Shown: positions 10,758 to 56,092 of the stretch, piece after piece
Layout: each line of letters opens with the position of its first letter
How positions within the stretch are numbered: the stretch's first letter is position 1
Assembly (NCBI GenBank): GCA_003554845.1
Contig: PWHK01000017.1
Span: forward strand, 11,242-75,241
DNA length: 64,000 bases
DNA from: Candidatus Aenigmatarchaeota archaeon
GTDB lineage: Archaea > Aenigmatarchaeota > Aenigmatarchaeia > PWEA01
Direction: 5' to 3'
The notes under the pieces: model-generated
What the model was told of the DNA's origin: nothing
What the model saw: the letters and a program-made list of their open reading frames with translations, nothing else
Databases searched by the model: none
Program-made: the position numbers and the translations under genes

Positions 10758-10913
10758 ATGCCTTCAAGAAAGACAAAGGGAAAGAAAAGAAAGCTCATAA
10801 AGAGAGGAAACATTTCAGATGCTCCTATATGGGCGTCCATAAGAAAGTACGGAATGAAGAGAAGCAGGACGAGACGGATAAGAGTCAACAAAGGTAAGCA
10901 CTGGAGAGAGTGA
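10758..10913 (+). CDS. rpl39e: 50S ribosomal protein L39e (51 aa; absent from ORF track)
   Basis: Manual translation MPSRKTKGKKRKLIKRGNISDAPIWASIRKYGMKRSRTRRIRVNKGKHWRE; conserved L39e-L31e-eIF6 gene order. Confidence 0.85.
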   Translation: MPSRKTKGKKRKLIKRGNISDAPIWASIRKYGMKRSRTRRIRVNKGKHWRE

Positions 10914-11551
10914 TCCATATGGAAGACAACGTTTTCAGAATTCCTCTCAGGGTGAAAAAGGTTGAGAGAAGGAATCGGGCAGCAAGGGCTGTACGTGAGA
11001 TAAAGAAGTTCGTAAGAAAACAGACAGAAAAAGATATCAAGATAGACCAGGAGATAAATGATATAATATGGAAAAGAGGTGCACAGAAACCACCTTCATC
11101 TATAAGAGTAAGGCTTGTTGATTCGAATAGCCATGTGCTGGTACAGTCCCCCGACAGAGAGCTTCCCTCGGAAAAGAAGTTCGAGTGCGAAGACTGCGGG
11201 AAGACATTTTCAACGGAGCAGGGACTCAAAGTGCATGTATCGAGGGCCCACAGGGAAGAAGAGGAACAGGAAGAGGAAGAAAAGGAAGAGGAGAACTACG
11301 TATGCGAGGAATGCGACAGAGAGTTCGATACAAAAAGAGGACTTTCTATACATCAGTCACAGTCACATGACGAGGACGATGACGACGACGACAGAGAGGC
11401 ATATGAAGAGGCACTGTCCGGAAGCATATCCGATGCAAAGGAAGCTATAGATAATATGGACGATCCAGACTTTGATCTTTTACTTGAAATAGAGGAAGAG
11501 AACAAGGACAGAAAGGGAATGAAGAAATACCTTGAGGATCAGATCAGTTGA
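10910..11551 (+). CDS. rpl31e: 50S ribosomal protein L31e fused to two C2H2 zinc fingers, a poly-acidic tract and a conserved ~45-aa C-terminal module (likely start ATG 10919)
   Basis: N-terminal ~90 aa RIPLRVKKVERRNRAARAVREIKKFVRK...IDQEINDIIWKRGAQKPPSSIRVRL is L31e; then FECEDCGKTFSTEQGLKVHVSRAH and YVCEECDREFDTKRGLSIHQSQSH; DDDDDD; C-terminal [38 protein letters not shown]. Confidence 0.8.
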   Translation: MIHMEDNVFRIPLRVKKVERRNRAARAVREIKKFVRKQTEKDIKIDQEINDIIWKRGAQKPPSSIRVRLVDSNSHVLVQSPDRELPSEKKFECEDCGKTFSTEQGLKVHVSRAHREEEEQEEEEKEEENYVCEECDREFDTKRGLSIHQSQSHDEDDDDDDREAYEEALSGSISDAKEAIDNMDDPDFDLLLEIEEENKDRKGMKKYLEDQIS

Positions 11552-17391: not shown

Positions 17392-18537
17392 TTACACTTC
17401 CCTTGTGATGATGTAGTCTGCCAGACCCTTCAGAAACTCTGTGATTTCTGGGTCCAGTTTATCTTCATCCAGGGCCTTCTTTCCCTCTTCTGCAAGTTTT
17501 ACAGTTAGCCTTCTCGAGTAGTCATAGGATCCTGTCTCCTTGACAACCCTTCTGACCTCCTCTATCTGTTCATCTGTGACATCTCTGTTGCCGAGCGCGT
17601 CCAGTATAGTCTTTCTCTGCTTTTCGTCGCTGTTTTCAAGGGCCTTGAGTATAAGCAGCGTTCTCTTTCCCTCCTTGAGGTCGGAATCTGCTGGTTTACC
17701 AAGTTTGTCTCTGTCGCCGAAGAGTCCAAGCATATCATCATATACCTGGAAAGCCTTTCCGACATTTTCTCCGTATTTTTTCAGTACATCTATCTGTTCT
17801 TTGGTTCCCTTTCCAAATATAGCTCCCATCTCAAGTGGTCCTGCTATGGTATACTGTGCTGTTTTGAGATGGTGCACAGTAAGCACATCTTTCTCGGTTA
17901 CGTTCTCGACATCCTTTTCATTGAATGTAACATCTAGAACTTGGCCGTATCCTGTGTGTCTATGTATCTGTTCGAACTTTTGCAGGGCCTCTATCTTTGT
18001 CTTATCGTCGAAATCCGTCTTAAGTATCTGTGACACTGCAAATGAGTTTGCTATATCACCGGCGATTATTCCCATATTTTCACCGAACTTTTCAGGCCTG
18101 TCCCCGGAGAACTTTTTTTTGTGGTACCTCTCGTACATTTTATGGAGCGTATCGTCCCCTCTTCGGAGATCGTCCTCGTCCATGATATCGTCGTGTACAA
18201 GAAGATAGGACTGAAGAGCCTCTATAGACAGAGAAGCAGGCAGTATGTTTTCTTCATCTTCACCACCGACGGCCTTGTAACCTGCTATTATTAGAGCAGG
18301 TCTCACCCTTTTACCTCCCCTCATGGTGTAGTCCTTGAGATATTCTATTACCTTTACACCCTCGGAATGTATCCTTTCTCCCCTTTTCTTATGTTCCTTG
18401 AACTCCTTCCGAAGTTCTTTGTTTATCTTTTTCTGCCATTTTTTTAGTTCTTCTATGGCACTATCCATTCTTTCTTTGTCGACTTCAATATCTTCGATCA
18501 TTTTATCATACTGATGATGTTCTTTGTTTATAAACAT
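17392..18537 (-). CDS. Geranylgeranyl diphosphate synthase (trans-isoprenyl diphosphate synthase) with ~55-aa N-terminal coiled-coil extension
   Basis: First aspartate-rich motif LVHDDIMDEDDLRRG and second motif FQVYDDMLG. Confidence 0.85.
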   Translation of the reverse strand: MFINKEHHQYDKMIEDIEVDKERMDSAIEELKKWQKKINKELRKEFKEHKKRGERIHSEGVKVIEYLKDYTMRGGKRVRPALIIAGYKAVGGEDEENILPASLSIEALQSYLLVHDDIMDEDDLRRGDDTLHKMYERYHKKKFSGDRPEKFGENMGIIAGDIANSFAVSQILKTDFDDKTKIEALQKFEQIHRHTGYGQVLDVTFNEKDVENVTEKDVLTVHHLKTAQYTIAGPLEMGAIFGKGTKEQIDVLKKYGENVGKAFQVYDDMLGLFGDRDKLGKPADSDLKEGKRTLLILKALENSDEKQRKTILDALGNRDVTDEQIEEVRRVVKETGSYDYSRRLTVKLAEEGKKALDEDKLDPEITEFLKGLADYIITREV

Positions 18538-18576
18538 TCGTCATTTATATAGTATCTTCAACGACCTTTGTCTAAC

Positions 18577-19626
18577 CTACAGATCAAGATATTCCTTCAT
18601 AACTCCTGTTATTCTAAATCTGGTTTCTGACAGTTCCTCGAGGTTCTTTGAGCCTGTAACAAACATTGCAGTTTCAAGCTCCTCGATAGTTCTGTTTATC
18701 CTCTGGACAACAGCCTCACTGCTTTCCATGGCCGGTTCGAGGAAAGGAAGTGCTGCTGCAGTGCATCTGGCACCTATTGCCACGGACTTCGCGACGTCAA
18801 GGCCGTTTCTTATCCCACCGCTTGCCACAACATAGGGATGTACCTTGCTGGCAAGTAGGGTAGATGCCACGGTTGGTATTCCCCATCCTTTGAAAACTTT
18901 ACCTATATATGCCTTGGTTTTATTTCCAGCGGCATCTGCTCTGTATGACTCTATATAGGGCCATGAAGTACCTCCCTTGCCCCCTGTATTTATTATATCT
19001 ACATCTATACTGTCCAGCTTCTTTGCAGTTCTGCGCGAAATTCCACACCCCGTTTCCTTTACCATTACAGGAACGCTCAGTTCCTCTGTCACCCTCTTTA
19101 TCTCCTCTATGCAACCATATGCATCTACATCACCCTCGGGCTGTGCAGCCTCCTGGGTAAAGTTGAGATGTATTGCCATGGCATCCGCATCTATCATTCC
19201 AACGGCTCTTTCTATATCGTCTGTACTGTACTCCCTGAGCTGTGCTGCTCCTATGTTTCCATATACAAATGCCTTCGGAGCCTCTTCTCTTACAACGGAG
19301 TAGGTTTCGGCCAGATCTTCGTCCTCCAATGCCGCCCTCTGGCTTCCTACACCTATGCCGATTCCACATTTTTCTGCAGCAGATGCAAGCCTTCTGTTTA
19401 TATCCATGCCTCTCATGCTGCCTCCTGTGATAGAGTCTATAAGAATCGGCGCATTCAGTGTATGGTTGAGAATCTTACAGGATGTGTCTATACTGTCTTT
19501 GTTTATCTCTGGGAGGGCGTTGTGTTCGAGATGTACGTCCTTGAAACCTGCTCCTCCTATCTCGACTTCTCTTTCCAGAGATATTCTTATATGGTCGTCC
19601 TTCCGGTTCGATGTTTCTTGTGACAT
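18577..19626 (-). CDS. fni: Isopentenyl-diphosphate delta-isomerase type 2 (FMN-dependent)
   Basis: 349 aa TIM-barrel with INTGGKGGTSW and VVASGGIRNGLDVAKSVAIGA. Confidence 0.85.
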   Translation of the reverse strand: MSQETSNRKDDHIRISLEREVEIGGAGFKDVHLEHNALPEINKDSIDTSCKILNHTLNAPILIDSITGGSMRGMDINRRLASAAEKCGIGIGVGSQRAALEDEDLAETYSVVREEAPKAFVYGNIGAAQLREYSTDDIERAVGMIDADAMAIHLNFTQEAAQPEGDVDAYGCIEEIKRVTEELSVPVMVKETGCGISRRTAKKLDSIDVDIINTGGKGGTSWPYIESYRADAAGNKTKAYIGKVFKGWGIPTVASTLLASKVHPYVVASGGIRNGLDVAKSVAIGARCTAAALPFLEPAMESSEAVVQRINRTIEELETAMFVTGSKNLEELSETRFRITGVMKEYLDL

Positions 19627-38478: not shown

Positions 38479-39711
38479 ATGAAGGATAAGATTGCTGTAA
38501 TAGGCGTAGGGCATACAGAGTTCGGCGAACTTTGGGATAGTTCATGGATAGATCTTGTCGAAGAGGCAGGACTCGGGGCACTGGAAGATGCTTCCATAAA
38601 GAAAAAGGATATAGACAAGTTCTTTCTTGGCAACATGTCCCTTGGAATGTTCGGTGGACAGGAGCATACTGCTTCAAAGGTCTTTTCTGAGGTATTCAGC
38701 GGAGGCCCCGATTCCCATGTTCTGGGCAGAAGGATAGAGGGAGCATGCTCTTCCGGTGGTCTTGCTCTGGAGGCTTCCTTTAACGATATTCTTGCAGGGA
38801 TACACCACGGCCAAGACAAAATAATAATGGCCGGTGGCTTTGAGAAGATGACAGATAAGCCTACGGATGAAGCAACGAAGATACTCAGCGCAGCTTCGGA
38901 TATGGGAAAGGAAATGGGTTTTACATTTCCTGCCCTCTACGGCATTATAAAGGACAGATATATAGAAGAAACGGGGGCCGAGGAGGAAGACTTCGACTAT
39001 ATAGCAGTAAAGAGTCACAAGAACGCATCACTTAATTCCAGAGCACAGTATTCCTTTGAAGTTTCACACAGCAAGGTTAAAGACTCCTTTAAAGTAGCAA
39101 GCCCAACAAAGCTTCTGAACTCCTCGGGTATCGCCGACGGCGCTGCTGCAGTTATAATGACTACTGTGAGAAAGGCCGAGGAGATAGGAACGGACTATGT
39201 GGTTCTCGAGGACGTTCAGGGAGTTAACGACTCCATAGCCCTCTTCGAGAGGGAAGATATACTTACACTTGTTTCGACCAAAAGAGCTGCAGATATGGTC
39301 TACAGGTCCACTGGCTTCGGTCCAGAGGATGTGGATATAGCAGAGGTACATGATTGTTTTTCTATAGCTGAGATACTTGCCCTTGAAGACCTGGGATTTT
39401 ACCCAAAGAGAGAGGGCTGGAAATGGATAAAGAAGAGCCTTTCTGGCTGCGAGGAGATGGATGGTCCGATTCCCTACAAACTTCCAGGCGGAAAGAATCT
39501 CTTTGTAAATACTTCAGGAGGATTGAAGGCAAAGGGGCATCCGGTTGGAGCTACAGGAATAGCTCAGGTTGTTGAAGTAGTTGAACAGCTGAGTGGACGT
39601 GCAGGTGATAGACAGGTTCCAGATGCCAAGGTCGGTATTACACATAATGTCGGGGGAAGTGGAGGTACCGCAGTGGTCAGTCTTTTGACAAAACCAGATG
39701 GTGTATCATGA
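38479..39711 (+). CDS. Acetyl-CoA C-acetyltransferase (archaeal thiolase)
   Basis: 410 aa thiolase fold with active-site Cys (EGACSSGG), NTSGGLKAKGHPVGATG, NVGGSGG; 4-nt overlap with the HMGCS gene. Confidence 0.85.
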   Translation: MKDKIAVIGVGHTEFGELWDSSWIDLVEEAGLGALEDASIKKKDIDKFFLGNMSLGMFGGQEHTASKVFSEVFSGGPDSHVLGRRIEGACSSGGLALEASFNDILAGIHHGQDKIIMAGGFEKMTDKPTDEATKILSAASDMGKEMGFTFPALYGIIKDRYIEETGAEEEDFDYIAVKSHKNASLNSRAQYSFEVSHSKVKDSFKVASPTKLLNSSGIADGAAAVIMTTVRKAEEIGTDYVVLEDVQGVNDSIALFEREDILTLVSTKRAADMVYRSTGFGPEDVDIAEVHDCFSIAEILALEDLGFYPKREGWKWIKKSLSGCEEMDGPIPYKLPGGKNLFVNTSGGLKAKGHPVGATGIAQVVEVVEQLSGRAGDRQVPDAKVGITHNVGGSGGTAVVSLLTKPDGVS

Positions 39712-41174
39712 AAAGGACAGGACCGGAGTACAGAAGGACCCTTGGATTAAGATACCTTAAGGGAAAGAGATGCAAGGAGTGCGGAAAGATATTTCTTTCC
39801 TCCAGAAACTTCTGCAGTGAATGTGGTAGAAAAGGGGAGCTTACACGGATCGATCTACCTAAGAAGGGCGAGGTCTACTCCTCGTCGGTTGTGCGGAAGT
39901 CCACGAGCGATTTCAACCTCGATTCAAAGATACCATATTCTGTTGGTCTTATAGATTTAGATGGGACAGATTTCAAGGCCCCTGGTATAATAGACTCTGA
40001 AAGTAGGACGACAGGAGAAGAGGTTCAGGCGAGGATAGGACTCCTTGGTGTATCCAACGAGATTAGATTCTACACATATGTATGGAACAGAAAACACCAA
40101 TACCACAGCCCTGAACCGTCTTTCGGGGGATGTAATGTGGACGGTGGTGTTGGTATAGTTGATTACGGTGTCTACGTTCCGAGAAAGAGGATAAAGTCGG
40201 AGGAGATAGCAGAGGTATGGGGAGAGCAGGTCGAGGGTCTTGTGAAGAGCTTTCCGGGAAAATGGGACGATACAGGATCCTATGCAATGAACTCGGCCCT
40301 GAACTGTTTAAAGGGAAGCGGCGTTGATCCATCTGCGATAGGTAAGATAATGGTTGGATCCGAGTCTCATCCATATGCCGTAAAGCCGACGGCTTCTGTT
40401 GTTGCAGAGCTTTTAGGTTCCGATAGACAGTGTGTTGACTTCGAGTTTGCCTGTAAGGCAGGTACACAGGCGATTATAGATGCACACGACTCGGTTAAGG
40501 CAGAAACAATAGACTATGCAATGGCCATAGGCGCCGATTCATCCCAGGCCCGTCCAGGAGATGCATTGAAGTATACTTCAGGAGATGGCGCCGCTGCAGT
40601 TCTTATTGGATTAAAGGATCCCATTGCAGTTATAAATGGATATGAATCCTTTACCACAGATACACCGGACTTTCTGAGAGGCGAAGCCGAGGAGTTTCCT
40701 GTTCATTTTGGAAGGTTCACAGGCGAGCCAGCCTACTTCAAGCACATAAAAATTGCCGCAGAAAGGCTCATGGAAAGCCAGTGTACCAAGCCTGGGGACT
40801 ACGATTATGCTCTATTCCACCAGCCCAACAGTAAGTTTCCAAGAAAGGTAGGTAAAAGACTGGGATTCACAGAGGATCAGATCGAACCCACAGTGGTAGT
40901 TGACTGGATAGGTAATACATATTCTGCCTGTGTTCCACTTGGTCTCTGTAGAATTCTGGACCAGGCCTCGCCCGGCGACAGGATTTTTATAACATCCTAC
41001 GGTTCAGGGGCCGGTTCCGATGCATTTGATATGACTGTAACAGAGAAGATAAAGGAAAAACAGAAACAGAAGAAGAGAAGCGTTGACTCCTGGATAGGAA
41101 AGGAGGATAGAGATCTACTGGAGTTCGAATCCTATGGAAAGTATGTCAAAAATAAAGGTCTTCTTAAGGACTAA
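39708..41174 (+). CDS. HMG-CoA synthase with N-terminal DUF35 (zinc-ribbon + OB-fold) scaffold domain fused
   Basis: Residues 1-135 carry CKECGKIF...CSECG zinc ribbon followed by an OB-like segment (DUF35 type); residues ~140-488 are archaeal HMGCS (VGIVDYGVYVPRKRIKSEEIAEVWGEQ, active-site Cys region FACKAGTQAI). Confidence 0.75.
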   Translation: MKRTGPEYRRTLGLRYLKGKRCKECGKIFLSSRNFCSECGRKGELTRIDLPKKGEVYSSSVVRKSTSDFNLDSKIPYSVGLIDLDGTDFKAPGIIDSESRTTGEEVQARIGLLGVSNEIRFYTYVWNRKHQYHSPEPSFGGCNVDGGVGIVDYGVYVPRKRIKSEEIAEVWGEQVEGLVKSFPGKWDDTGSYAMNSALNCLKGSGVDPSAIGKIMVGSESHPYAVKPTASVVAELLGSDRQCVDFEFACKAGTQAIIDAHDSVKAETIDYAMAIGADSSQARPGDALKYTSGDGAAAVLIGLKDPIAVINGYESFTTDTPDFLRGEAEEFPVHFGRFTGEPAYFKHIKIAAERLMESQCTKPGDYDYALFHQPNSKFPRKVGKRLGFTEDQIEPTVVVDWIGNTYSACVPLGLCRILDQASPGDRIFITSYGSGAGSDAFDMTVTEKIKEKQKQKKRSVDSWIGKEDRDLLEFESYGKYVKNKGLLKD

Positions 41175-52647: not shown

Positions 52648-53910
52648 TTATTTCTTTTTGAACGGGTAAACAACAGGATTTTTTATCTGTATGTTGTCTG
52701 TTCCCTGTTTGCATTTGTCGTCTGGGTCACACACACCAAAGGATTTGTAGTAGAGATCATTGTCGCACGACGGGGATACAAGCTCTCTATTTTGTCTTTT
52801 GAACCATTTCAGCTGTGTGTTTATGTAGTTTTCACCTAGAGGAGGATTGTTTTTGTTGTTCCACTCTTCTAATCTCTCCTCTACACTTTCCCAGTCCCAG
52901 GCCATTCTTCTCAGGAAGGTTATGAGTATAAATACACTCCTCTTTCTTCCATCATCCAGTCCTTCTAGTATGTGTTTTATACAAGGAGGAAACCTTTTCT
53001 CTGGTATAGGATCCTCGGGTTTTATCTCCTTTGTACTGCCCTCGTCTTCTTCTTCCTTCTTCTTTCTCTTACTCATCCAGTTGATTGAATCGACCATAAG
53101 TTCCTTTGCACAGCCCTTCTTGATATTTCCTATGAACTTTCTACCAAGTTCGACGTTTTCAGGCTTTGCATCATCCATTTTGAAACCATCTATTTCGTCT
53201 TTTTCCAGAGGATAGGATACGTGCCAGGTTCCGTCGTGGAGAGAGTAAGGAAGCCTGAATAGATGTCTTTTACCCCAGTACTTTTCCACATCCACAAAGG
53301 CAAAGGGTGTCATTCTGTCTATATGTGAGTCCAGTTCATCGGAAAGCTTGTGGAAGGAACCCTTGAGATCTATAAAGTCCTGGAGAAGATCCCCCTTTAT
53401 TTTTTTTCTTATGAAGGATGCTATAGACTGTGGTATTGCAGGGAACTGTTTGCTTGTCTTCTCAAAGTCGACCTTTTTAGGAAAGGCCTTCCAAGGAACA
53501 ACAACATGGAAACCTCTTCTCCCTGAAAACTTCATGCCATAGCCATCTATTCCATAGTCCTCGAGCAAGTATATTATTTTTTTGAGTGTCATCTTGGCTG
53601 CTTCCAAGCCCATGGCAGAATCTATATCAAGGATAAGATCCCAGCCCTTCCTGAGACGGTCCATGTCCTCTTTTCTCATTTTGGTGTCGAGCTTCATAGG
53701 ATTTTTCCATCTTTCGACAGAACCATGGAATGCGACACAACCCTTCTTTACCAGTCCGAGTAGATCGTTACTGTACTGGAGAACATTGGGCCTTGAAGTA
53801 TATCCGCCACCGGAAAGAGTTCCACTTATTTCTCTGTCCTTTGATATATTCAGTATAGAATCAATTACCTCTTCTCTGCTGTAGTAGTCTATAATCTCCT
53901 TTCTGTTCAT
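52648..53910 (-). CDS. priSL: DNA primase, single-chain fusion of PriS catalytic domain and PriL C-terminal Fe-S domain
   Basis: PriS motifs LILDIDSA, FSGRRGFHVVVP, FRLPYSLHDGT in residues ~90-235; PriL-CTD motifs FPPCIKHILEGLDDGRKRSVFILITFLRRM and Cys cluster SPSCDNDLYYKSFGVCDPDDKC at the C-terminus. Confidence 0.8.
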   Translation of the reverse strand: MNRKEIIDYYSREEVIDSILNISKDREISGTLSGGGYTSRPNVLQYSNDLLGLVKKGCVAFHGSVERWKNPMKLDTKMRKEDMDRLRKGWDLILDIDSAMGLEAAKMTLKKIIYLLEDYGIDGYGMKFSGRRGFHVVVPWKAFPKKVDFEKTSKQFPAIPQSIASFIRKKIKGDLLQDFIDLKGSFHKLSDELDSHIDRMTPFAFVDVEKYWGKRHLFRLPYSLHDGTWHVSYPLEKDEIDGFKMDDAKPENVELGRKFIGNIKKGCAKELMVDSINWMSKRKKKEEEDEGSTKEIKPEDPIPEKRFPPCIKHILEGLDDGRKRSVFILITFLRRMAWDWESVEERLEEWNNKNNPPLGENYINTQLKWFKRQNRELVSPSCDNDLYYKSFGVCDPDDKCKQGTDNIQIKNPVVYPFKKK

Positions 53911-54727: not shown

Positions 54728-56092
54728 TTATTTATATAAGTCTTTTGTCCGGAGTCCTAGGTCCTCGGAGTTTTCCCTGAATACCTTTTCAAGGCCTCTT
54801 CCCCTTTCCTTTACTCTGTACCTAACCCTTACAACCGGGACATCTACATCAACAAGCCCTGAAAGATCCATGGGGGTTCCGGCAATTACAGCATCACACC
54901 TACAACTGTTTATAGTCTTTTCCAGGTCTTCTATCTGTTCTTTGCTGTAGCCCATCGCCGGTACAACCCTTTTTAGGTTGTTGTATCTTTCGAAAACATC
55001 CTTTATAGATCCGAATGCGTCATTCCTCGGATCGACTATCTTTGACGCGTTGTACTTCCGCGCCGCTATTAAACCGGCCCCATATGAAGCTCCTCCATGC
55101 GTAAGTGTCGGTCCGTCTTCCACAACCAGAACATCCTTATTCTCTATCATTTCGGGGTTTTCGACATCTACAGTTGAGTCTGCGTGGATGATTTCTGCAT
55201 CCGGATTGACCTTCTTTGTATTTTCAACTATCCTTTCTATTTCCTCGACCTCTGCGCTGTTTTCCTTGTTTACCACGACGTAGTCTGCTGACCTCAGGTT
55301 CGCCTCACCCGGGTGGAAGCTTAATTCATGTCCGGGCCTGAGTGCGTCTGCCACAACTATGTGGACGTCGGGTTTGAAAAATGGGAGTTCGTTGTTTCCA
55401 CCCTCCCATATTATGATGTCGCATTCTTCCTCGACCTCTTCAAGTATGCTTTTGTAGTCAACTCCTGCATACACAACGTTTCCATTTTCGATATGTTGCT
55501 CGTACTCTTCCCTCTCTTCTACAGTAGTGTTTTCCCTGTCAAGATCTTCCATGGTTTCAAACCTCTGTACCTTCTGCTCATGCAGATCACCATATGGCAT
55601 AGGCTCCCTTACTACAACTACGTCCTTCCCATGGTCCTTTAGTATCTTTACAATCCTTCTCGAAACCTGTGACTTTCCACATCCGGTTCTTACAGCATCT
55701 ACGGCAACGATGGGTTTGTTGGATTCCAGCATCATCTCCCGAGGGCCTATAAATCTGAAGCCTGCGCCTTCTGAAAGAACCCTTGAAGCAGTATGCATCA
55801 CGTCTTCGTGGGATATATCCGAGTACGAGAAAACCACCTGGTCCACATTCTTACTTTCTATTATACTCTCTAGGTCTTCCTCGGATACTATGGGAATACC
55901 ATCGGGGTACAGTTCACCGGCGAGTTCCGGGGGATATACTCTCTCATCTTCCCTTCCTATTTCACCTATATTCTGTGTGGATGTGTGTGTAAATGCAACC
56001 ACTCTGTAGTTTTCGTTTCCTCGGAAGAACGTATTGAAATCGTGGAAATCACGGCCTGCGGCACCCATTATAACTACGTTTTTTCTCTGCAT
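54728..56092 (-). CDS. COG2403-family P-loop protein, cyclic 2,3-diphosphoglycerate synthetase-like
   Basis: 454 aa; N-terminal Rossmann-like VVIMGAAGRDFHDFN; central P-loop AVRTGCGKSQVS; length and architecture fit the cPGS family but identity not verifiable here. Confidence 0.4.
   Translation of the reverse strand: MQRKNVVIMGAAGRDFHDFNTFFRGNENYRVVAFTHTSTQNIGEIGREDERVYPPELAGELYPDGIPIVSEEDLESIIESKNVDQVVFSYSDISHEDVMHTASRVLSEGAGFRFIGPREMMLESNKPIVAVDAVRTGCGKSQVSRRIVKILKDHGKDVVVVREPMPYGDLHEQKVQRFETMEDLDRENTTVEEREEYEQHIENGNVVYAGVDYKSILEEVEEECDIIIWEGGNNELPFFKPDVHIVVADALRPGHELSFHPGEANLRSADYVVVNKENSAEVEEIERIVENTKKVNPDAEIIHADSTVDVENPEMIENKDVLVVEDGPTLTHGGASYGAGLIAARKYNASKIVDPRNDAFGSIKDVFERYNNLKRVVPAMGYSKEQIEDLEKTINSCRCDAVIAGTPMDLSGLVDVDVPVVRVRYRVKERGRGLEKVFRENSEDLGLRTKDLYK

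Follow-up and report, generated by a model that had tools for sequence, protein, structure and literature searches.

An N-terminal fusion of the DUF35 scaffold to archaeal HMG-CoA synthase, encoded directly downstream of thiolase in Aenigmatarchaeota

Introduction

Can the scaffold of the archaeal mevalonate-entry complex be carried on the same polypeptide as one of the enzymes that it holds together? The question is raised by a locus of a Candidatus Aenigmatarchaeota archaeon (contig PWHK01000017.1), where an acetoacetyl-CoA thiolase gene (38479-39711) is followed by a single open reading frame (ORF; 39708-41174) that appears to join DUF35, a zinc-ribbon/OB-fold protein, to the N-terminus of HMG-CoA synthase (HMGCS), the first committed enzyme of the pathway to membrane-lipid precursors, all three modules of the complex being co-encoded. 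Positions refer throughout to the window, which is the whole stretch of 64,000 nucleotides analysed. In nearly all archaea it is the thiolase/HMGCS/DUF35 complex that carries isoprenoid lipid synthesis past its unfavourable first step. In the 6ET9/6ESQ model, according to PMC11522927 (citing Vogeli 2018), four DUF35 monomers hold together two dimers of HMGCS and two of thiolase. The same source, together with PMC12329534 and PMC6392133, summarises from Vogeli 2018 a CoA site at the interface of all three proteins, and describes an acetoacetyl intermediate that is handed from one active site to the other without being released, so that the endergonic reaction of the thiolase is coupled to the exergonic one of the synthase. 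The archaeal thiolase is reported to be insoluble in isolation and isolated HMGCS to be inactive (PMC12960953, citing Vogeli 2018). The homologous PhlABC complex has the composition (A2C2)2B4 (PMC6392133).

A preliminary description of the window proposed that DUF35 is here covalently attached to the HMGCS N-terminus, just downstream of thiolase, and that such a fusion could inform the stoichiometry of the complex. Each element of the first proposal holds, and the HMGCS is an archaeal one that has kept its catalytic residues. The second gains little from the fusion, a 1:1:1 ratio having already been established by the 6ET9/6ESQ crystal structures, according to PMC11522927, and for PhlABC (PMC6392133).

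Results

One gene and one protein

The whole of 39708-41174 (+) was read and holds no in-frame stop, which corresponds to one gene of 488 codons and not two. The gene boundaries are those of the preliminary description, which had also correctly recognised the CKECG and CSECG motifs (C22, C25; C36, C39) and the four-nucleotide overlap with the thiolase gene, whose TGA stop lies within ATGA; neither a stop nor a frameshift dividing the gene was seen. The overlap, read directly from the sequence, is likely to couple translation of the thiolase and fusion genes. It recurs in a Bathyarchaeota locus (L017), and in two further loci (L003 and L002) the genes are adjacent or four nucleotides apart.

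Full-length fused homologues (n = 32; 47-100% identity) from many independent assemblies could be aligned end to end, and a metagenome contig in ENA carries an identical protein. Codons were compared with those of L002 (NCBI GCA_046540935.1), the nearest sequenced relative whose sequence differs; as synonymous sites of the DUF35 segment are saturated, the non-synonymous (pN) and synonymous (pS) values are given in place of dS. In the DUF35 codons pS is 0.85 and pN 0.16 (pN/pS ~0.19), against a pN of 0.07 for the HMGCS segment; read in the two other frames, the DUF35 codons contain 7 and 9 stops. These values indicate that the N-terminal module is under purifying selection. Because the 32 homologues come from many independent assemblies, 39708-41174 is neither an assembly artefact nor a chance ORF, and it encodes one protein.

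The N-terminal DUF35 module and the linker

By Pfam alone the identity of the N-terminal module is borderline. The zf-ChsH2 model (PF12172) matches residues 16-42 with 23.3 bits, just above its cutoff of 23.2 (25.3 bits when the first 135 residues are scanned alone), and OB_ChsH2_C (PF01796) matches residues 49-87 with 23-25.3 bits, below its cutoff of 27.1 and over the first half of the model only. The question is settled by three other lines. The best PDB sequence match of the N-terminal part is the DUF35 chain 6esq_E of the Methanothermococcus thermolithotrophicus thiolase/HMGCS complex (E = 1.7e-13), the next being a weak one to BbsA (7pxp_A, 3.6e-6, query residues 11-117). A custom hidden Markov model (HMM), built from 48 operon-encoded canonical DUF35 proteins, matches with E = 9.5e-18 over HMM positions 7-110. 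Lastly, AlphaFold2 predicts a complete six-strand OB barrel up to residue 128 (E45-49, 53-62, 77-84, 90-95, 105-116 and 119-128), with pLDDT values of 81-96 for the block. Taken together, the sequence matches and the model identify the module unambiguously as DUF35, a zinc ribbon followed by an OB fold. The Pfam/HMM scan that the preliminary description had suggested thus agrees with its assignment, the N-terminal segment matching DUF35 models.

The invariant W126 closes the OB fold just before the linker (RKHQYHSPEPSFGGCNVDGG), which holds the likewise invariant P135; both residues are invariant across the fused homologues. The linker block has a pLDDT of 89-93 and is predicted to be packed rather than floppy.

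The HMG-CoA synthase domain and the single-chain model

Residues 148-480 exceed the cutoffs of two archaeal HMGCS equivalogs, NF003274 (417.7 bits; cutoff 244) and TIGR00748 (378.3 bits; cutoff 353.35). The HMGCS part is 50% identical to chain 6esq_I of M. thermolithotrophicus (E = 1.8e-100; Foldseek TM 0.89), and both halves of the fusion therefore find their best matches in the corresponding chains of one solved complex (6ESQ/6ET9). Residues E219, C249, H371 and N403 align to the tetrad E82/C114/H238/N270 of the M. thermolithotrophicus enzyme, which a 2026 study found essential for HMG-CoA formation; mutating the tetrad, or the His of the thiolase HDxF motif, abolishes HMG-CoA formation in the archaeal complex (PMC12960953). 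This E-C-H-N tetrad is invariant in 32/32 fused proteins. Judged by these matches, the C-terminal part is an archaeal HMGCS with an intact tetrad.

The AlphaFold2 single-chain model of the fusion (pTM 0.89, mean pLDDT 86) predicts one rigid two-domain body in which DUF35 is docked on the synthase. A Foldseek search found no solved PDB chain spanning both modules, the best query-normalised TM being 0.64.

The partner thiolase and its insertion

The thiolase encoded upstream matches Pfam Thiolase_N/Thiolase_C_1 and NCBIfam PRK06064 / AcCoTHIOL_METTL-like models and carries the nucleophile Cys90 (GACSSGG), HDCF at 291-294 and GHP at 353-355. Alignments place an additional 13-residue segment, IPYKLPGGKNLFV, immediately before the NTSGGLKAKGHP loop. 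The spacing from HDxF to GGLK is 44-45 residues in all of the canonical thiolases (57/57) and 55-63 residues in the fused-partner thiolases (9/9 scored, representing 6 distinct sequences); an insertion of 10-18 residues is thus present in every scored fused-partner thiolase and absent from the 57 canonical ones. The insertion of L086 was identified by visual inspection of its frame-1 translation. The strict co-occurrence of insertion and fusion suggests that the two proteins are co-adapted.

The canonical Thermoplasmatales thiolase of L021 apparently lacks the nucleophile Cys (…ENSTASGG…), as do two fused-partner thiolases that are considered in the Discussion.

Distribution, gene order and origin

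The survey of genome contigs gives at least the matches listed here and is not an exhaustive census. The labels of close homologues and the top match among species-representative genomes assign the window to Candidatus Aenigmatarchaeota (DPANN). Within Aenigmatarchaeota the fused proteins fall into three groups: A (~488 residues), which includes the protein of the window and has a full zinc ribbon in all relatives; B (~492 residues); and C (P0027-P0036; L003:5001-6365; ~452 residues), in which a precise 32-residue deletion takes out the entire Cys4 ribbon and leaves the OB fold, the linker and the HMGCS tetrad in place. In a neighbour-joining tree of the HMGCS domain the three groups form one clade (100/100 bootstraps), with C placed beside B (85/100), and for this reason the sequences point to one fusion event followed by a loss of the ribbon within Aenigmatarchaeota. 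The fusion is not universal in the phylum, since one of its genomes (L023) has the canonical unfused genes.

An exhaustive profile search of 1.84 billion representative proteins returned at least 10 N-terminally fused clusters at 50% identity. Named members come from Lokiarchaeota (MCK5587973.1) and Bathyarchaeota (HID91176.1 and UCH02736.1, the latter on a 1.98-Mb chromosome), and all three are labelled merely 'hydroxymethylglutaryl-CoA synthase' in NCBI. The tetrad motifs read as intact in both sequences inspected, P0122 and P0141. The survey of DUF35-HMGCS fusions that the preliminary description had called for therefore reveals an Aenigmatarchaeota clade and members in Bathyarchaeota and Lokiarchaeota, and not a one-off. 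Matches of tblastn in Methanosarcinales/Methanomicrobiales that extend upstream from query residues 109-128 were considered as partial fusions and rejected, since their upstream part is a translation of non-coding or unrelated sequence; the loci concerned have the canonical three genes.

Approximately 60 complete unfused loci, from many archaeal phyla and some bacterial metagenome-assembled genomes (MAGs), always show the order HMGCS -> thiolase -> DUF35. The statement of the preliminary description that other archaea have three separate clustered genes is borne out by every complete unfused locus, except that in some Methanobacteriaceae/Methanobrevibacter loci no DUF35 gene is adjacent. Every fused locus has the order thiolase -> [DUF35-HMGCS], be it in Aenigmatarchaeota groups A, B and C, in the two Bathyarchaeota or in Lokiarchaeota; the locus of the window is accordingly permuted and does not follow the canonical three-gene order, an order that is typical of the complex family but does not define it biochemically. 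It follows that loss of a stop codon in the canonical operon could not by itself have yielded the fusion, and that a permutation had to come first. The likely route would be a permutation of HMGCS-thiolase-DUF35 to thiolase-DUF35-HMGCS, for instance through a tandem duplication after which the outer genes were lost, which would give exactly the observed order, and then loss of the stop between DUF35 and HMGCS.

In the neighbour-joining tree of the HMGCS domain all N-fused proteins group together, with weak bootstrap values (19/60) and possibly through long-branch attraction. The whole operon variant may have had a single origin, which the thiolase insertion favours as a shared derived character across the three phyla, or several, the tree supporting monophyly of the N-fused proteins only weakly.

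Annotation of fused genes

Several database records of related genes differ from the fusion described here. In L002:3554-5020 (GCA_046540935.1) the NCBI start lies at an internal ATA (L002:4001) and gives a 339-residue HMGCS (P0022); the 450 nucleotides upstream are left as 'intergenic' with no other gene call, hiding the DUF35 module, and an intact 488-residue ORF is present. Judged from the sequence, P0037 (343 residues, Aenigmatarchaeota; compared with P0030) resembles a truncated call of a group C fusion. P0023 (328 residues), which shares 78% identity with the HMGCS portion of the window protein, begins inside the first HMGCS strand and is probably a truncated call as well; its taxon label, candidate division MSBL1 archaeon SCGC-AAA382A20, is unlike the Aenigmatarchaeota label of all other close relatives. 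The group B gene at L007:2998-4463 has a frameshift inside the HMGCS domain that yields ORFs of 352 and 136 residues, by assembly error or as a pseudogene, and a close relative, P0024, is intact with 492 residues.

Genomic context

Custom HMM and profile scans found no other DUF35, HMGCS or thiolase in the window; candidates for a separate DUF35 gene were zinc-ribbon noise alone (custom HMM, E >= 0.02) and were rejected. Elsewhere in the window are encoded a type-2 isopentenyl-diphosphate isomerase with an adjoining short-chain polyprenyl synthase (Table 1), an acetyl-CoA synthetase and a pyruvate:ferredoxin oxidoreductase, which means that both the demand of the pathway and the supply of acetyl-CoA are encoded. 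Gene identities thus suggest that this genome, of the DPANN group, encodes downstream isoprenoid steps besides the entry to the pathway.

Table 1. Features of the locus and of the related isoprenoid genes, with positions in the window
Feature	Positions	Strand	Remarks
Acetoacetyl-CoA thiolase gene	38479..39711	+	410 residues, SCP-x/archaeal type; directly upstream of the fusion gene
Thiolase insertion IPYKLPGGKNLFV	39469..39507	+	Thiolase residues 331-343, immediately before the NTSGGLKAKGHP loop (alignments)
DUF35-HMGCS fusion gene	39708..41174	+	ATG start; 488 residues and stop
ATGA overlap	39708..39711	+	Fusion-gene start codon and thiolase TGA stop; 4 nucleotides
DUF35 module	39708..40091	+	Residues 1-128 (core ~12-128): short N-terminal helix, rubredoxin-like zinc ribbon, OB-fold barrel
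Cys4 zinc ribbon	39771..39824	+	C22-x2-C25 ... C36-x2-C39; CKEC and CSEC
Linker RKHQYHSPEPSFGGCNVDGG	40092..40148	+	Residues 129-147 (19 residues); holds invariant P135
HMG-CoA synthase domain	40149..41171	+	Residues 148-488 (341 residues)
Tetrad E219	40362-40364	+	
Tetrad C249	40452-40454	+	
Tetrad H371	40818-40820	+	
Tetrad N403	40914-40916	+	
Type-2 isopentenyl-diphosphate isomerase and adjoining short-chain polyprenyl (geranylgeranyl diphosphate-type) synthase	17395-19626	-	Isomerase TIGR02151, 388 bits

Discussion

We propose that the locus encodes a cis-docked scaffold fused to HMGCS within a thiolase-binding, HMG-CoA-forming complex, and as an explanation of the whole we hold this to be quite probable. 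The proposal is made because both halves of the protein match one complex, the HMGCS equivalog cutoffs are passed, the tetrad is invariant and the thiolase motifs are intact, and further because AlphaFold2 predicts a rigid body, a thiolase gene lies upstream in every fused locus across three phyla and the DUF35 codons are constrained. It is also favoured by the context, as the window contains no second copy of any of the three modules and does contain genes for isoprenoid synthesis and for acetyl-CoA supply. From the domain identities, the catalytic residues, the purifying selection, the conservation of the fusion, the gene order and the thiolase insertion we infer docking in cis at the canonical site, complex formation, channelling and the product. 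The scaffold would belong to the HMGCS chain, fold as a normal zinc ribbon and OB module and bind, through the short packed linker of the model, at its usual site by the HMGCS N-terminus, leaving a free face that would recruit the thiolase dimer encoded immediately upstream. The thiolase would then make acetoacetyl-CoA in its endergonic reaction, the pantetheine arm, in the CoA site that the proteins share, would swing over to E219/C249/H371/N403 in the active site of HMGCS, and exergonic condensation with a second acetyl-CoA would presumably yield HMG-CoA. Fusion and ATGA overlap together may enforce 1:1:1 dosage and assembly. The geometry is consistent with what has been described for 6ET9, in which DUF35 contacts the β1-β2 loop, situated at the extreme N-terminus of HMGCS, and fills the space that a C-terminal extension takes up in other HMGS enzymes (PMC11522927). 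Both HMGCS termini thus lie near the DUF35 site, so that a short linker from either end would be workable and N- and C-terminal fusions would both be viable. In homologous DUF35-thiolase complexes the main interface is formed by the OB subdomain and the N-terminal helix, the zinc finger being peripheral (PMC12329534), and the loss of the ribbon in group C is therefore plausible without loss of bridging.

Several points weigh against this proposal. The NCBIfam scores of the thiolase lie below the curated cutoffs (391.6 vs 420; 376.5 vs 600), and a canonical second copy may exist elsewhere in the genome, outside the window. Functional drift within the fused family is possible, because the fused clade sits on a long branch of the HMGCS tree, the insertion of its thiolases adjoins the catalytic GHP loop, and the nucleophile Cys is apparently lost in two relatives: by alignment, the thiolase of Bathyarchaeota L017:1808-2992 has …TTSSAS… for …EGACSSGG…, and that of Aenigmatarchaeota group B L007:1515-2750 has …ESGEASGA… at the same place. 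These replacements may reflect an altered chemistry in those lineages. Neofunctionalisation is the most serious rival: the pair could have been repurposed as a thiolase/HMGS-like/DUF35 complex with other chemistry, either a different acyl-CoA condensation or thiolysis only, like PhlABC, MucABC and the Pseudomonas fluorescens ACAT/HMGS-DUF35 system. The long branch, the lineage-specific insertion beside the GHP loop and the lost nucleophiles would all fit it, as would the readiness with which this architecture, including a fused HMGS-DUF35, has been neofunctionalised (PMC12960953). We nevertheless disfavour repurposing and regard it as improbable: published repurposed complexes have an HMGS without the E-C-H-N tetrad that is invariant in the 32 fused proteins, the equivalog cutoffs are exceeded, and the thiolase of the window retains its Cys, HDxF and GHx motifs. 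Nor does the window contain polyketide synthase/non-ribosomal peptide synthetase or catabolic neighbours, the flanking genes being housekeeping ones, or an alternative HMGCS, though isoprenoid genes are present.

It could also be supposed that DUF35 is kept solely to stabilise HMGCS within the one chain or to keep it soluble, with neither thiolase bridging nor channelling. The deletion of the whole zinc ribbon in group C, which implies relaxed constraint on part of the scaffold, and the roughly twofold faster change of the DUF35 codons relative to those of HMGCS would be in line with such a role. It is disfavoured by the adjacent or overlapping thiolase gene of every fused locus in three phyla, by the strict co-occurrence of the thiolase insertion with the fusion, and by the retention in group C of precisely those parts, OB subdomain and N-terminal helix, that form the main thiolase interface; moreover, the thiolase reaction by itself is endergonic, and the isolated thiolase is reported to be insoluble and isolated HMGCS inactive, as cited above (PMC12960953). 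We consider a stabiliser role very unlikely. The least probable explanation is that no fusion protein exists, the true HMGCS start being internal (at about residue 148-150) or the ORF joining two genes through an assembly or frameshift artefact. The internal ATA start annotated in GCA_046540935.1 and the frameshifted MAG of the group B representative L007 could be adduced in its favour. However, the full 488-residue ORF is intact above the annotated start in L002, where no other gene is called within the 450-nucleotide gap; the linker residues W126 and P135 do not vary, purifying selection acts on the upstream codons, both other frames of which contain stops, and a separate N-terminal gene would need a stop of its own, of which there is none. 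The L007 frameshift lies within the HMGCS domain, away from the junction, and 32 independent full-length fused ORFs speak against an artefact. Both an internal start and an assembly artefact are excluded by this conservation and by selection on the N-terminal codons.

The M. thermolithotrophicus complex (2018, PNAS 115:3380) has the same three modules as the locus of the window, clustered genes, and the conserved tetrad and thiolase motifs. In the window, by contrast, a conserved 19-residue linker attaches DUF35 covalently to the HMGCS N-terminus, thiolase precedes DUF35-HMGCS where the canonical operon has HMGCS -> thiolase -> DUF35, and the thiolase carries 13 extra residues before its GHP loop. 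Bacterial HMGCS-DUF35 proteins likewise carry DUF35 on an HMGS-type subunit with thiolase encoded alongside; examples are that of Streptomyces albus DSM 41398, which PMC11522927 credits to Vogeli 2018, and the ACAT/HMGS-DUF35 system of P. fluorescens, which makes no HMG-CoA (PMC12960953). In these proteins DUF35 is C-terminal, whereas it occupies residues 1-128 here, and the P. fluorescens HMGS unit is inactive, having lost the tetrad that is intact in the window. The profile search found the C-fused type in ~25 clusters among the top 150 matches, with HMGCS at ~2-80 and DUF35 at ~350-460, a set larger than the N-fused one and separate from it; the two fusion types must have arisen independently. 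An archaeal protein of the opposite orientation is P0126 (Ca. Alkanophaga liquidiphilum, 485 residues), HMGCS-like at its N-terminus with a C-terminal DUF35; its tetrad Glu is apparently replaced (…ATTSAPYAEG…, read from the sequence), and NCBI records disagree on its name, one giving 'OB-fold protein' and another 'HMG-CoA synthase'.

More distantly, a DUF35 zinc-ribbon/OB module likewise binds an SCP-x-type thiolase-fold partner in ChsH2/Shy with Ltp2/Sal, BbsAB, PhlABC and MucABC, although the partners and the chemistry are different, namely a hydratase-DUF35 with aldolases in ChsH2/Shy, a benzoylsuccinyl-CoA thiolase in BbsAB and acyltransferases in PhlABC/MucABC. The ChsH2/Shy module is C-terminal to a MaoC hydratase by way of a long flexible linker, in contrast to the N-terminal position and the predicted short, packed linker of the window protein. 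DUF35 is repeatedly found fused to a partner from its pathway (PMC12329534, PMC6392133, PMC12960953). In the searchable literature, where only the opposite orientation appears (HMGCS-DUF35, bacteria), no description of an N-terminal DUF35-HMGCS fusion was found, nor of the permuted operon with its thiolase insertion, the three-phylum spread or the ribbon-less subclade, nor anything on Aenigmarchaeota mevalonate genes; an archaeal fatty-acid-synthase preprint discusses thiolase/DUF35 pairs and not the N-terminal fusion. Both the complex and its stoichiometry are already known, as are fusions that join DUF35 to HMGS or to other partners, and the proteins themselves are in public databases. What appears to be undescribed is the N-terminal orientation with a tetrad-intact HMGCS, the permuted operon with the insertion, the spread over three phyla and the ribbon-less subclade. 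The fusion is real and conserved, yet it varies a known three-protein complex only modestly and would not surprise a specialist.

At the evolutionary level, a bolder hypothesis may be put forward tentatively, and with rather more doubt than belief. Thiolase with its insertion followed by DUF35-HMGCS would constitute a distinct second form of the archaeal mevalonate-entry complex, which had a single origin in permutation and fusion and has since come to occur in at least three phyla (Aenigmatarchaeota, Bathyarchaeota and Lokiarchaeota) through ancient paralogy or horizontal transfer. Tethering would have relaxed the constraint on the scaffold, up to deletion of the ribbon in one subclade, the loss of the thiolase nucleophile in some lineages would hint at altered chemistry, and the insertion would add a new element to the interface, taking over or strengthening the contacts that free DUF35 normally makes.

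A natural single-chain scaffold-enzyme with intact active-site residues suggests that the DUF35 site can be reached from the HMGCS N-terminus besides the C-terminus, as in the bacterial orientation, and may offer a simpler two-gene module for engineering the upper mevalonate pathway. In the ribbon-less subclade, and in the thiolase insertion that co-varies with the fusion, nature has itself provided experiments on the role of each part of the scaffold. It is also of interest that an archaeon of the DPANN group encodes the entry steps of its own lipid-precursor pathway. Annotation pipelines label such proteins as plain HMGCS or trim the N-terminal module, and surveys that score DUF35 as a separate gene will consequently report its absence from these lineages in error.

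Other observations in the window

A 420-residue ORF at 52651-53910 (-) has weak matches to PriS in its N-terminal part and to PriL at residues ~264-416, and is apparently a fused PriS-PriL primase. The 454-residue ORF at 54731-56092 (-), between PCNA and radical-SAM genes, has no Pfam/NCBIfam match at E <= 1e-5. At 10910-11548 (+), a 213-residue ORF matches ribosomal protein L31e (residues 8-74) and a C2H2 zinc finger (residues 91-114), and may be either a fusion or an over-long ORF call.

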